The translations under genes and the position numbers were made by a program. 64,000 nucleotides of DNA from an uncultured Acidobacteriota bacterium (GTDB lineage: Bacteria; Acidobacteriota; Thermoanaerobaculia; UBA5066; Gp7-AA6): positions 1,825 to 65,824 of the forward strand of contig CAWERV010000002.1 of NCBI GenBank assembly GCA_963811425.1, in the 5' to 3' direction. Under the pieces are notes generated by a model. The model worked only from the letters and a program-made list of their open reading frames with translations, was not told the DNA's origin and ran no database searches. This document shows, piece after piece, positions 7,879 through 12,252 of this stretch (the first letter of the stretch is position 1; each line of letters begins with the position of its first letter).

Positions 7879-9069
7879 TCAGACGCCCCCGGGTCCGGCT
7901 CGCAGTCCTGAGGCGGAAAGGCCGCTCTCATCGACGATGCCGCGCAGGAGATCGACGACGTCCCCGTCCCACCAGCCCTTTTGCACCCCTTCGAAGAGGA
8001 TCTCGAACGCAGTCTCGACGCGCAACGCCCCGCGGTACGCGCGGTCGGTCGTGAGGGCGTCGAAGATGTCGGCGACGGTCACGATGCGCACGGCCATGGG
8101 AATCGCGGTACCGGAGATTCCCTCGGGATAACCGGATCCGTCCAGGCGCTCGTGGTGGTGATAGACGACGGGAAGGGTCTTGCGCATCGTCTTCATGGGC
8201 GAGAGCAGATCGTTGCCGACGACCGGGTGCTCCTCGATGATCGCGCGCTCCTCGGGAGTGAGAGCACCGGGCTTGCGCAGGACCGCGTCGGGAATGACGA
8301 TCTTGCCGAGATCGTGAAAGAGGGCCCCGCGGCGCATGTCGTTGCGCGCACCGGCGTCGAGCCCCATCCGGGCGGCGATGTGGTCGGCGTATTCCGCGAC
8401 GCGGCCGCTGTGCCCGGCCGTGTACGGATCCCGCGCATCGATCGTCTTCGCCAGCGTCAGGATGACGTGCTCGGCGTGCTCGTGCTCGTCGGCGAAGAGC
8501 TTGAGCATGACGAGGGCGCGCACTCGGGGCAGCAGCTCTTCCTGCGAGAACGGTTTGGAGATGAAATCCGTGACGCCGCCGGACTGCGCGCGCATCTTCT
8601 CGGAGGCCGTCGCCATTCCCGTCAGCATCACGACCGGCAGCAGGCGCGTGGTCGGGTCCGCACGGATCGCCTCGAGCACCTCGTGGCCGCTGCGGTCTGG
8701 CAGGTGAAGATCCAGGAGCACGAGGTCGGGGGCATCCGCGCGGATGCGCGCGAGTCCCTCCTCCGCGGTCGGGAACAGTTCGACGAGATAGCCGGCCGGA
8801 GTCAGAAGCCGGTGGAGGAGGCGCCGGATCTGGTCGTCGTCATCGATGACGAAGACGCGCGCCGAAGAGGATTCGGGAGCGCGAGCCCGGGCGGTGAGGA
8901 GGGTGGATTCGATGGGAAAAAGTATAGCCGATGGTGGCGCGGAGGCTGTCTGCGATTGACGATTTCGCTTCCCGAGCCTACAATGCTCGGTACAGGTAGC
9001 AATAGATTGAAGTCGATCAGGAACGCTTCCAGGAGTGCGGGGGCGAAGGTCTGTGTGCCGCTCCTGCAA
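7879..9069 (-). CDS. response regulator with HD-GYP phosphodiesterase output domain
   Basis: REC domain ([14 protein letters not shown]...[14 protein letters not shown]...VVMLTG) followed by HD-GYP (HDLGKIVIP...[14 protein letters not shown]). The stop is at 7879. The start is uncertain: there is no ATG/GTG/TTG in the ~50 in-frame codons upstream of the REC domain. The nearest canonical start is TTG 9069, which I used; the functional start may be nearer 8913. Confidence 0.8.
8956..8984 (+). promoter_or_regulatory. sigma70-type promoter candidate for the collagen-like gene (TTGACG-N17-TACAAT)
   Basis: TTGACG at 8956-8961, an exactly 17-nt spacer, and TACAAT at 8979-8984, inside a locally AT-richer patch. 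The in-frame ATG at 8983 overlaps the -10 hexamer, so it is unlikely to be the start. Confidence 0.55.
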
Positions 9070-12000
9070 AGAGGGTCGAAGGGCGCGGGCGACCGGCTCG
9101 TTGCGATTTTCGTCGCGGCCTCGACCATGTTTTTCGGAGCCGTACCGGCCGTGACGCCGGCCGAGCGTGTCGTCGTGCCCATCTACTCGACGGGTACGAT
9201 CACGCCCGCGCTCGGCATCTTCCCGGACGTCCTGCAGCGTGGGGCGACCACCGAGGTGATGCTCGCGGTCGCGAACGTCAATGCTCTCTCGCAGGACGGA
9301 TTCCAGCCGGGCGACGCGTTCCAGATCGCCTTCGGTGAGGGTTCCGCGTTCGTCGTTGCGGTGGACCACGTTGTCTTCGTCAATTCCGTCGTCTTCACGC
9401 CTGCAGACTTCGTCGTGAGCTCGACGCCCGATCAGATCGTCGTGACGTTCGTCGGAGCGCCCAGGGCGTTTCCGCCTGGCGACAGCTTCTCCGTCTCGGC
9501 TTCGCTGCGCATGCCCGATGCAAGCGGCGATCGGACCATTGCCTTCACGCTGCCGCCTTTCGCCGACCGCTACACGGACGCGAGCCGCACGCGGTACGTG
9601 ACCTACTCGGTGCAGGACGTCCCGGAGTCGCCTGGCCCGCCCGGCCCGCGCGGACCTTCGGGGCCAACGGGAGCCACGGGGCCCAAAGGAGCGACGGGTC
9701 CATCGGGGCCGACCGGTGTGACGGGCGCGACGGGAGCCACGGGTCCCACGGGAGCTACGGGTCCTACCGGTCCTACGGGTGCAACCGGCGCGACGGGCGC
9801 CACAGGTCCGACAGGTCCGACTGGCGCGACGGGCGCCACTGGTCCGACGGGAGCCACTGGCGCGACCGGTCCCACTGGTGCGACGGGTCCCTCCGGCCCG
9901 ACCGGTGCGACAGGACCCACCGGTGCCACGGGTCCCACTGGCGTGACCGGCGCGACGGGTGCAACCGGTGTTACAGGACCCACGGGGCCGACTGGTCCGA
10001 GCGGTCTAACGGGCCCCACTGGAGCAACAGGTCCGACGGGCGCAACCGGTGCGACAGGACCCACAGGTGCCACGGGGCCCACTGGCGTGACCGGTGCGAC
10101 GGGTGCAACCGGGCCAACCGGTGCAACCGGTCCGAGCGGTCCCTCTGGCGTCACGGGACCGACGGGAGCCACAGGCCCAACCGGATCAACCGGGGCGACG
10201 GGACCGACAGGTGCCACCGGGCCCAGCGGTCCGTCAGGCCCCTCCGGGGTGACAGGTCCATCGGGAGTCACCGGACCGACAGGGCCGACTGGTGCGACTG
10301 GGCCGTCCGGCGCGACCGGGCCAACGGGTGCCACCGGTCCCACGGGTCCATCGGGCGCTACGGGGCCGAGCGGGGCCACCGGTCCGACGGGCCCGACGGG
10401 TGCTACCGGGGCAACGGGGCCCTCCGGGGCGACTGGTCCCACTGGCCCAACGGGAGCGACCGGTCCGTCTGGCGCCACCGGACCGACGGGTGTGACCGGT
10501 CCGAGCGGCCCGAGCGGGGCGACCGGAGCTACCGGCCCGAGTGGCCCGTCGGGGGTCACGGGTCCGAGCGGCGCAACGGGAGCAACTGGCGCGACGGGTG
10601 CAACCGGGCCTTCTGGACCGAGTGGTCCGTCTGGCGCGACCGGCGTGACCGGTCCGAGCGGTCCCTCCGGTCCAGTCGGCGCGACAGGCCCGACCGGCGT
10701 AACGGGCCCGTCTGGACCTTCGGGCCCATCTGGCCCCTCGGGTGCCACGGGTACAACCGGTGCGACGGGCCCGACGGGGACAACCGGTCCTTCCGGCCCC
10801 ACTGGCCCATCCGGACCATCCGGTCCCTCGGGGGCGACGGGCGCAACCGGAGCCACGGGTGTCACCGGTCCGACTGGAGCGACGGGACCGTCGGGGCCGT
10901 CTGGTGCCTCTGGAGCGACCGGTGCGACGGGCGTGACGGGAGTGACCGGCGCGACTGGTGCTACAGGTCCGTCCGGCCCGTCAGGCCCATCGGGTCCGTC
11001 CGGTGCGACAGGCGCGACGGGCGTCACTGGAGCGACTGGTCCATCCGGCCCGTCGGGGCCGTCTGGTCCCTCGGGAGCCACCGGTGCGACGGGCGCGACG
11101 GGGGTGACCGGAGCGACTGGCGCCACGGGCCCATCCGGCCCGTCAGGCCCCTCGGGTCCGTCGGGTGCAACAGGTGCAACCGGCGTTACTGGTGCGACCG
11201 GTCCTTCCGGGCCGTCAGGGCCTTCAGGTGCGACGGGCGCAACCGGCGTGACGGGAGTGACCGGCGCGACTGGTGCTACAGGTCCGTCCGGCCCGTCAGG
11301 CCCATCGGGTCCGTCCGGTGCGACAGGCGCGACGGGCGTCACTGGAGCGACTGGTCCATCCGGCCCGTCAGGGCCGTCTGGTCCCTCGGGAGCCACCGGT
11401 GCGACGGGCGCGACGGGGGTGACCGGAGCGACTGGCGCCACGGGCCCGTCCGGCCCGTCAGGCCCCTCGGGTGCAACAGGTGCAACCGGCGTCACTGGTG
11501 CGACAGGTCCTTCCGGGCCGTCAGGGCCTTCAGGTGCGACGGGCGCAACCGGCTCGACGGGAGTAACGGGGGCGACTGGCGCCACTGGTCCTTCAGGCCC
11601 ATCAGGTCCATCCGGTCCGTCGGGTGCAACCGGAGTCACGGGCGTGACCGGTCCATCCGGACCGTCCGGGCCTTCCGGCCCCAGCGGACCTTCCGGTGTT
11701 ACGGGCGTCACCGGCCCGAGTGGTCCGTCGGGGCCGTCTGGTCCGACCGGTGTCACCGGGGCCACCGGCGTCACCGGTCCGTCGGGCCCCTCTGGTCCGC
11801 TCGGGCCGCTGGGCCCTTCGGGTCCAACGGGGCCGTCGGGCCCAACCGGGCCGAACAGCGGAACACCGATCGTCGGCGGTACGAGCCGCACGACCAATTT
11901 CTCGAACGCGGCAGTCCGCTACATGGGGCTTTTCTCCGCTGAGCTGGGTACGACGGAAGTGTCCATTCAGAACATCATCCCGACGGCCGGCACCATCAAG

Positions 12001-12252
12001 AACTTCTTCGTCTTCATCCAGGCCCCCCCGGGAGGCGTCGCGTCCTACACTTTCACGGTTAGGAGGCAGACGCTCCCGGCGCCTTCCGCGGCTACAGCCG
12101 TGACCTGCACGATCACGGGAGCGGCTACATCCTGTTCGGACCCCACGCACACCGCAGCCTTCGCCGCCGGCGACCTGATCGCCATTTCGATCACCCCGGC
12201 CGGCACACCCACGACAACGTCCGGTCAGTGGACCGCGGTGTTCGCGCCGTAG
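9055..12252 (+). CDS. secreted collagen-like triple-helix repeat protein (BclA-like architecture)
   Basis: 3' part of track ORF 7981..12252; the 5' part of that ORF is antisense to the HD-GYP gene. I chose GTG 9055 as the start (GAAGG 5 nt upstream). It gives a signal-peptide-like N-terminus ([35 protein letters not shown]). A ~190-aa non-collagen domain, 247 GXY triplets and a ~130-aa C-terminal globular domain follow. Alternative start: ATG 9127. Confidence 0.85.
9634..11856 (+). repeat. uninterrupted Gly-X-Y coding repeat (247 triplets, Y mostly Thr/Ser)
   Basis: I read it codon by codon. It begins [16 protein letters not shown] at 9634 and ends ...[12 protein letters not shown] at 11856. 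I saw no break in the G-X-Y register. Confidence 0.95.
10915..11535 (+). repeat. higher-order tandem duplication (315-nt and 306-nt units) inside the collagen repeat
   Basis: Unit A (10915-11229) and unit B (11230-11535) align base for base. In the ~300 nt I compared, I saw about four substitutions and one 9-nt deletion. A third, partial copy continues to about 11640. Confidence 0.9.

Follow-up and report, generated by a model that had tools for sequence, protein, structure and literature searches.

The stretch of DNA analysed here, hereafter the window, is a 64,000-nucleotide (64-kb) piece of contig CAWERV010000002.1 from an uncultured Acidobacteriota bacterium. It carries a gene for a collagen-like fibre protein on the forward strand (9007-12252). 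Convergent with it, on the reverse strand (12290-14068), is a gene for a membrane protein with C-terminal tetratricopeptide repeats (TPRs), which ends 38 bases past the collagen stop codon. The fibre protein is laid out as a putative signal peptide, an N-terminal domain of ~157 aa (N-domain), a rod of 247 Gly-X-Y (GXY) triplets and a 132-aa beta-rich C-terminal knob. The fibre protein itself belongs to a known kind of protein, and we are confident that the gene is a real gene for a collagen-like trimeric fibre. Four features go beyond the known kind: a conserved pairing with a neighbour that resembles the TMTC O-mannosyltransferases, interchangeable trimer modules, a large unannotated family of knob domains and a failure of gene calling at such loci. 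The reading we favour, at a probability of about 0.55, is that the product is a Sec-exported homotrimeric fibre, ~0.2 µm long, whose Thr and Ser residues would be O-glycosylated in the periplasm by the product of the neighbouring gene.

The collagen-like gene and its product

The rod (9634-11856, + strand) consists of 247 consecutive GXY triplets with zero register breaks. An initial annotation of the window, made from the sequence alone, had described the array in the same terms, and a regular expression run on the translation agrees. The rod is 741 aa long and would span ~212 nm if fully triple-helical (0.286 nm per residue). Position X is occupied mostly by Pro (125), Ala (88) and Val (29), and position Y by Thr (159) and Ser (81), with only seven other residues, so that Thr/Ser make up 240/247 (97%) of Y, again as first described. 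Four triplets, GAT (87), GPS (80), GPT (38) and GVT (29), account for 234 of the 247. The rod contains two charged residues (one R, one K), both towards its N-terminal end. This near-absence of charge was overlooked in the initial annotation, as was the conserved TMTC-like membrane/TPR neighbour. The protein matches the Pfam Collagen model (PF01391) with an e-value of 1e-107 (352 bits against a cut-off of 27). A scan of the whole window for runs of eight or more triplets found none besides the rod and a 9-triplet antisense run of the same array. The rod had been called giant, which is overstated: its 741 residues lie within the known bacterial range, with 1,158 residues on record for the collagen-like region of a Bcl protein and 6,000 for a bacterial collagen (PMC8968730, PMC11923368).

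NCBIfam models for SclB, SclA and Lcl also match the protein. These matches arise from repeat composition only and were set aside. The NF038329 (Scl2/SclB) match scores 356.9 bits against a cut-off of 325, over model positions 115-307, which are the repeat alone. A model that is passed on the repeat alone is likely to mislead the automatic naming of Thr-rich collagen-like proteins.

At the DNA level the rod is degenerate, with 65-80% matches at short periods (Tandem Repeats Finder). The same program found a higher-order repeat of 315 bp (105 aa) at 10873-11645 (+), in 2.5 copies of 90% identity. These are the youngest duplications, and the stretch of the rod most exposed to assembly error. The GC content at third codon positions (GC3) falls from 0.85 in the N-domain to 0.63 in the rod and is 0.81 in the C-terminal domain, and third positions in the rod have diversified towards A/T. 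Such diversification lowers repeat identity at the DNA level and may limit recombination or slippage.

The fibre ORF (open reading frame) begins either at a TTG at 9007 (1,081 aa) or at a GTG at 9055 (1,065 aa); counted from the latter, 193 residues precede the rod and 132 come after it. We prefer TTG 9007, since an 'ATTGAAG' string and a Shine-Dalgarno-like AGG/GGGA 8-10 nt upstream are kept in three loci (the window and the orthologous loci L003 and L107), in all of which the ORF is open from TTG 9007 onward, whereas GTG 9055 is not conserved and reads GCG in L003. A promoter-like site of the sigma-70 type, TTGACG-17-TACAAT, lies upstream at 8956-8984 (+). It matches 10/12 consensus positions, where 0.1 such sites are expected in shuffled sequence, and both hexamers and their spacing are kept in L003 and L107. 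The near-consensus promoter noted at the outset thus stands as a conserved candidate site.

Either start gives a basic n-region, a single hydrophobic segment and a cleavage site of the type VTPA|ER (9007-9162, +). Seven K/R and one D/E lie ahead of the hydrophobic segment. By inspection, this long n-region, h-region and c-region pattern would be a Sec-type signal peptide. It recurs in L003, L006 and L107, and the suggestion of a signal-peptide-like N-terminus is borne out by Sec features in all orthologues. Tat export was considered on account of 'GRRLVAV' in L003 and rejected, as the window reads 'GDRLVAI'.

Searches of Pfam, NCBIfam, PHROGs and PDB sequence profiles gave no match to the N-domain (9163-9633, +). 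Homologues were found in five loci only: L003 and L021 (82% identity), L107 (80%), and L005 and L006 (~52%), a single one of them contributed by a metagenome scan, and the domain is lineage-restricted. By analogy with BclA, we take it to be the proximal or anchoring end of the fibre.

The fibre ORF stays open, without a shift of frame, across the two end domains, and it is the + frame that codes: both domains have coding-type GC3 and, in other genomes, homologues in frame with collagen repeats. Public gene calls give a different picture. An antisense ORF of 764 aa ('PVAPVGPV...', 9603-11897, − strand) runs opposite the array. It stays open because the GGN-CCN/GCN-ACN repeat is symmetric, and the wobble remains at the third codon position in the antisense frame too, which probably misleads gene callers. 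On an orthologous public contig (L105), a 611-aa antisense ORF with no Pfam match replaces the collagen gene at 9143-10978 (+), and the calls on that contig also stretch the response-regulator gene to 471 aa. The window's own fibre gene is recorded in the protein collection only as a 109-aa stub (P0001), whose homologues (P0002-P0007) are likewise stubs of 104-109 aa that start at most two residues from the corresponding Met. A protein-database search with the N-domain returned nothing, self match included, because the fibre gene had not been called.

If these calls were right, the true product would be the antisense ORF or the stub; alternatively, the array or its length could be an assembly artefact. 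Short-read assemblies do break inside the array, both in Logan contigs of 2.4-2.8 kb and in L107, and the 315-bp unit is repeated at 90% identity. We consider an artefact or a wrong product very improbable. The short-period repeat is degenerate, the frame is unbroken over 2.2 kb, and the end domains are conserved and in frame with it; the antisense ORF, by contrast, halts at the repeat edges and lacks homologous end domains, and is spurious. The closest orthologue, L003, lies on a 2.2-Mb contig of an Acidobacteriota metagenome-assembled genome (MAG); where the two proteins align they are 91% identical, and its rod counts 194 triplets without a break. Relative to the window it shows in-frame indels only, of 3-30 residues, all multiples of three residues, and the largest (15-30 aa) sit in the half of the rod that contains the 315-bp repeat. 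Close relatives thus differ in repeat number (247 against 194 triplets), a kind of variation for which a survey of close genomes had been suggested. The flanking genes of the window are 86-94% identical to those of an Acidobacteriota MAG, in keeping with the Acidobacteria-like host first proposed. Standard gene callers swap genes of this kind for an antisense ORF, and their proteins go missing from protein databases.

The C-terminal knob and its family

The knob comprises the 131 aa after the last triplet (11857-12249, +) and is all-beta, with Cys codons at 12106 and 12133; the query used for searches was 11854-12249 (132 aa). The two Cys had been pointed out from the sequence, and both are invariant in the 9 homologues of the collagen-linked subfamily, which fits an extracytoplasmic protein. 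Searches of Pfam and NCBIfam, both up to E ≤ 1, and of PHROGs gave no match. The profile searches proposed for the two end domains thus yielded no Pfam family for either, and the knob has no sequence relation to BclA or Scl. An AlphaFold2 (AF2) monomer model built from the 9 sequences is all-beta with nine strands (predicted local distance difference test, pLDDT, 66; predicted template modelling score, pTM, 0.61).

A C1q/TNF-like jelly roll had been suggested for this domain, and the structural searches uphold the class of fold only in part. The best matches of the modelled knob in the PDB are all jelly rolls of the C1q/TNF class, namely ExsFA/BxpB, the Caprin-2 C1q domain, C1q heads and 4-1BBL. 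They are weak, with e-values of 5e-3 to 3e-2 and template modelling (TM) scores of 0.37-0.46, and no BclA chain is among the top 50. Predicted viral structures (BFVD) match better, with e-values of 8e-9 to 1e-5, TM scores of 0.58-0.68 and 17-28% identity. These matches are the C-terminal parts of collagen-repeat proteins from Klosneuvirus, Solumvirus, Fadolivirus and uncultured tailed phages, and they also include tail-fibre proteins; the best is from Klosneuvirus (E 8e-9, TM score 0.67, 28% identity).

With an e-value limit of 1e-3, the knob profile matched 13,255 of 1.84 billion cluster representatives; Pfam has no model for this very large family. Nearly all of the top 150 relatives are ~400 aa long with three tandem copies of the knob. 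About 12 have six copies, two have nine and two have four, and none of the 150 has five, seven or eight. Most often a family member is a secreted ~400-aa protein in which three diverged knobs stand in tandem. The family is found in Parcubacteria, Saccharibacteria, Omnitrophica, Dehalococcoidales, Chitinophagales, Limisphaerales and Acidobacteriaceae. The multi-copy proteins carry signal peptides, occur in several phyla in contexts that look chromosomal, and belong to no Pfam or PHROG family. A profile of the three-copy family matched only a 'Fiber protein' among PDB sequences (E 0.019). Single knobs follow collagen repeats in genomes of Acidobacteriota, Myxococcota, Thermoleophilaceae and another Actinomycetota MAG (genome scan), and in a Peregrinibacteria MAG a single knob follows a 1,554-aa fibre that is not collagen. 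In all, the knob is found C-terminal to collagen or other fibre repeats in five phyla.

Because three knobs occur per chain, or one ends a three-chain stalk, the domain is probably a trimerisation or tip module. Two points weigh against this. The knob was modelled as a monomer from 9 sequences only, at a pLDDT of 66, and the copy counts come from the top 150 by score, a list that cannot show one- or two-copy proteins.

The viral matches raise a further explanation, that the fibre gene encodes the tail or receptor-binding fibre of a prophage, tailocin or other mobile element. The best structural matches of the knob are giant-virus and Caudovirales collagen-repeat, tail-fibre and Mtd-N proteins, the knob is scattered over unrelated phyla, and sister collagen-like proteins (see below) carry Peptidase_S74, a domain typical of phage tail spikes. 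The surroundings speak for a chromosomal gene instead. Phage genes are absent within 10 kb on either side, and the genes that do flank it encode a response regulator, a hydrolase, a TonB-type outer-membrane protein, a MutY-like protein and a histidine kinase. Chromosomal synteny with L003 is conserved, a Sec signal peptide appears to be present, and the GC content of the gene equals that of its surroundings. PHROGs gave no match, a tblastn search of 50,697 cultured phage records with a three-copy relative found none, and a search for three-copy knob proteins in viral contigs placed none there. A phage or tailocin origin is therefore highly unlikely, and we regard the gene as a chromosomal one for a secreted trimeric fibre.

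The convergent membrane/TPR neighbour

The neighbouring gene (12290-14068, −) encodes a protein with ~11 membrane helices followed by a TPR domain, and is our candidate for a TMTC-like glycosyltransferase of the GT-C class on the basis of its AF2 model, its motifs and its adjacency to the fibre gene. The model, built from 34 sequences, has a pLDDT of 87 and a pTM of 0.89. It shows helices to residue 390, a long linker helix and TPRs at residues 429-587, and the hydropathy profile agrees. The human TMTC1-4 proteins are GT-C O-mannosyltransferases in which membrane helices are followed by TPRs, with conserved motifs M1-M7 (PMC7801869). The neighbour was compared with these motifs by eye, without alignment to TMTC sequences. 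Three motifs have counterparts that are invariant in the 34 homologues: D47-D48 in the first outer loop (M1), Y83-R84-P85 ahead of the second loop helix (M2), and D302-W303 in the loop after the eighth modelled membrane helix, 293-311 (M5). In TMTC proteins M5 sits in outer loop EL4, between transmembrane helices TM7 and TM8 (PMC7801869). R165-x-E167 resembles M3, with RxE for RxD, and E367-x-R369-x-Y371, placed as before TM10, resembles M7; E367 and R369 are invariant among the 34 homologues.

Matches of relatives to known families point the same way. PMT_2 (PF13231) matches 2/34 relatives (best E 3e-5), TMTC_DUF1736 (PF08409) gives sub-threshold matches in 4/10 diverse relatives (E 0.04-0.07) at the homologous loop, and several relatives are named 'protein O-mannosyl-transferase' by JGI (the Joint Genome Institute). 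A glycosyltransferase family 2 (GT2) gene adjoins the relative in L013 and L014. In Bacteroidota, more than 20 loci (L035-L092) have a GT2 gene like that of L013 some 2-4 kb downstream of their TMTC-like gene, and lack a collagen-like neighbour. Taken together, the sequence motifs and the modelled architecture lead us to favour a GT-C glycosyltransferase, somewhat less firmly than we favour trimerisation by the knob.

The pairing of the two genes was surveyed by scanning species-representative genomes for relatives of the neighbour, keeping the best 80 of at least 515, with a collagen-like ORF defined as a stop-to-stop ORF with at least 15 GXY triplets. Among the 33 Acidobacteriota loci, which cover Thermoanaerobaculia, Vicinamibacterales, Solibacteraceae, Bryobacterales and Terriglobia, a collagen-like ORF lies within 10 kb in 23 and within 600 nt in 16. 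Against uniform placement in the flanks, 16/23 within 600 nt has a binomial P of ~5e-15. The corresponding numbers are one and zero in 37 Bacteroidota loci, and four and two in 10 loci of other phyla, the two being in Eisenbacteria and Syntrophobacteraceae. The neighbour lies immediately downstream of a knob-bearing collagen gene in L001-L006. The convergent, immediately downstream arrangement is seen in L001-L006, L014, L016, L019 and L020, and persists at 41-51% identity with unrelated flanks. In another six loci (L027, L029, L034, L044, L054 and L085) the neighbour is directly downstream and co-directional with the collagen gene, and the stop-to-stop ORFs abut or overlap; these subclade pairs look like an operon. 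At position Y, collagen ORFs that adjoin the neighbour carry more Thr/Ser than those that do not (median 0.77 vs 0.51, Mann-Whitney P = 0.0016).

The partner collagens have a modular build, with N-domains that vary, rods interrupted by CBM_5_12 inserts, and a C-terminus that is either the knob or Peptidase_S74; the latter is above the Pfam cut-off in sister collagen-like proteins beside relatives of the neighbour. Peptidase_S74 is a trimer-specific intramolecular chaperone. The two C-terminal trimer modules are interchangeable, which goes beyond the known kind of bacterial collagen.

Collagen-like proteins encoded beside TMTC-like genes at L054 6663-9935, L085 7134-9872 and 3147-7130, L027 2376-5474 and L019 12039-14243 combine a shared N-domain ('GFGGTDLILPAVGR...FYTT.W.TNPS') with CBM_5_12 inserts and a C-terminal Peptidase_S74, and make up one family of modular, trimeric fibres; in L085 there is a weak match to a YadA head as well. 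Further Acidobacteriota collagen-like loci are L071 13563-21695 (−), L007 1474-10321 and L077 14759-22641. Among them are tandem clusters in which four collagen-like genes follow one another, and an ORF, cut off at the edge of its locus, that exceeds 2,711 aa and holds 416 triplets. In the L007 cluster only 17-37% of Y positions are Thr/Ser, which makes it Thr-poor, and a TMTC-like gene is absent within 10 kb of it.

Two other genes of the window deserve mention. Divergent from the collagen gene is a response regulator with an HD-GYP-type HD domain (7879-8901, −; Pfam Response_reg and HD_5). The regulator is divergent from the collagen gene in L003 too, and in L004 (2343-3284), where the gene order differs, it flanks the TMTC-like gene on the opposite side. 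It therefore stays near the pair despite rearrangement, in close relatives only, and such a regulator would suit a surface structure under control. A gene for a YfhO-like membrane protein (822-3284, −; Pfam YfhO, E 6e-12) lies ~6 kb upstream of the collagen gene and also matches the NCBIfam model 'glycosyltransferase PgfM2' (E 1e-8) over its C-terminal part only.

We put the chance that the neighbour glycosylates the fibre protein, as its motifs and position suggest, at about even. Several observations weigh against it. In the clade of the window the two genes are convergent and not co-transcribed. With at least 515 relatives, the family of TMTC-like proteins is large, and none of the 37 Bacteroidota loci has an adjacent collagen gene, which implies that collagens are not the sole substrate of the family and that its Bacteroidota members act on something else. 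Conversely, knob-bearing collagens of Myxococcota and Actinomycetota have no TMTC-like neighbour, and Thr-poor collagen genes adjacent to the neighbour do exist (the second gene of L085, with Thr/Ser at 0.25 of Y, and L061, at 0.31). As to the enzyme itself, Pfam finds only TPRs, in the C-terminal third of the neighbour, and its first 410 residues have no match even at E ≤ 10; PF08409 and PF13231 likewise have no match to the window protein at that threshold. Of M4 only K204 is kept and the Glu is not conserved, and M6 (P354...P360) fits loosely. A Foldseek search of the full model against the PDB returned TPR proteins as all 50 top matches, which leaves the membrane part uninformative, and a PDB sequence-profile search with the membrane domain gave no usable match. 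A search of the window for a polyprenyl-phosphate-sugar synthase (GT2) found none.

The same observations bear on another explanation, in which the secreted trimeric fibre is real and the neighbour is an assembly, export or anchoring factor whose TPRs bind the fibre, or modifies another envelope component. Only TPR families attain Pfam cut-offs in the neighbour, the Foldseek matches, all of them TPR proteins, did not confirm a GT-C fold, its family is widespread in Bacteroidota without collagen neighbours, the orientation in the window is convergent, and several sources label its relatives TadD- or PilF-like pilus assembly TPR proteins. We consider this explanation rather unlikely. The TadD and PilF names derive from the TPR part only. 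Against it also stand an invariant DD in the first periplasmic loop with YRP, DW and E-x-R-x-Y placed as in TMTC enzymes, the weak matches to PMT_2 and DUF1736, the recurrent GT2 genes beside relatives, and the Thr/Ser enrichment of adjacent collagens. Periplasmic O-glycosylation by the neighbour remains the preferred reading.

A proposed glycosylated fibre and known systems

Under periplasmic O-glycosylation, the chain would leave unfolded via Sec across the inner membrane. At the periplasmic face, the TMTC-like GT-C enzyme would transfer a sugar from a polyprenyl-phosphate donor to Thr/Ser of the unfolded GXT/GXS repeats, with its periplasmic TPR domain gripping the substrate. Three knobs would then associate, perhaps locked by intradomain disulfides, and nucleate a triple helix that zips from the C- to the N-terminus. 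The sugars would replace the stabilisation that other collagens gain from hydroxyproline or salt bridges. The product would be a thin, sugar-coated fibre of ~0.2 µm with the N-domain proximal to the cell and the knob distal. We infer the glycosylation, the knob-led nucleation of the trimer, the sugar coat and the final location from the features described above.

The composition of the rod speaks for this scheme: with charged residues nearly absent, modification of Thr/Ser is likely needed for a stable helix. The peptide (Gly-Pro-Thr)10 is a random coil unless its Thr is galactosylated (cited in PMC11923368). In Riftia cuticle collagen and in synthetic (Gly-Pro-Thr(beta-Gal))10, glycosylated Thr at position Y replaces hydroxyproline as the stabiliser (cited in PMC11923368); the one is an animal protein and the other a synthetic peptide, so that the analogy is mechanistic only and implies no evolutionary relation. 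Thr triplets are over-represented in bacterial collagens, and the same source states as undetermined whether Thr is glycosylated on the unfolded chain or the folded helix (PMC11923368).

For the location of the fibre, the chances that it stands on the cell surface are evenly balanced. A search of the fibre protein for a lipobox, LPXTG or PEP-CTERM motif found none, and no route of outer-membrane export or anchoring was identified, which counts against a surface fibre. Lipoprotein, sortase and PEP-CTERM anchors were rejected, as the corresponding motifs are absent.

The closest known parallel is BclA and the other Bcl proteins, and the BclA-like layout recognised in the initial annotation stands: an N-domain, a GXT/GXS-rich collagen-like region with Thr-dominated Y and a C-terminal beta-sandwich of ~130 aa. 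Repeat number varies between strains in Bcl proteins and between close relatives here, and the modelled knob is weakly similar to that class of fold (C1q, TNF, ExsFA/BxpB). In bacterial collagens Thr dominates position Y; BclA carries O-linked sugars, and its C-terminal domain drives formation of a very stable trimer (PMC8968730). The likeness is one of analogy, not homology. No homology to Bcl proteins is detectable in the sequence of either end domain, the host is a diderm and non-spore-forming as far as known, the protein has a putative Sec signal peptide where Bcl proteins are targeted to the exosporium, and its rod has 247 triplets without interruption. The enzymes differ as well. The candidate here is a putative membrane GT-C protein that would act outside the cytoplasm. 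SgtA is among the known spore-coat enzymes (PMC7157674). Enzymes of that kind are soluble glycosyltransferases.

Other comparisons are looser. Scl1/Scl2 and Legionella Lcl are cell-surface collagen-like trimers, and their NCBIfam models score high on the rod. The matches cover the repeat only, however, and the fibre lacks both an LPXTG motif (LP.[TSA]G) and an N-terminal V trimerisation domain. Published work describes Scl rods as stabilised by charged residues, of which the rod here has 2/741. The collagen-repeat proteins of giant viruses and tailed phages, and phage fibre tips, are the best structural matches and carry the knob-like part C-terminal to collagen repeats. They are predicted structures of uncharacterised proteins, matched through a model of moderate confidence, whereas the locus here is chromosomal and without viral context. 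The neighbour, for its part, shares with TMTC1-4 and the PMT enzymes ~11 predicted membrane helices followed by a TPR domain on the non-cytoplasmic side, with DD, YRP, RxE, DW (in the TM7-TM8 loop) and E-x-R-x-Y in corresponding places, and targets that would be Ser/Thr of secretory proteins. The window protein differs from them in missing the Pfam TMTC_DUF1736 and PMT_2 models, the M4 Glu and a MIR domain.

We found no literature report of a pairing between collagens and TMTC-like enzymes, and none of an activity, donor or substrate for bacterial TMTC-like members. More tentatively than for the single locus, we propose that bacterial TMTC-like GT-C/TPR enzymes may be dedicated collagen O-glycosyltransferases in Acidobacteriota and some other diderms, acting before folding. 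If so, glycosyl-Thr would be a functional stand-in for hydroxyproline, collagens would provide the prokaryotic relatives of human cadherin O-mannosyltransferases with a first class of substrate, and the interchangeable C-terminal modules (knob and Peptidase_S74) would register the trimer. If the glycosylation link is wrong, an ordinary, though long, bacterial collagen-like fibre protein remains. The gene pair bears on how Thr-rich collagen-like proteins, which are common in bacteria and viruses, fold without hydroxyproline, and it could give a first handle on the function of many prokaryotic TMTC-like proteins.

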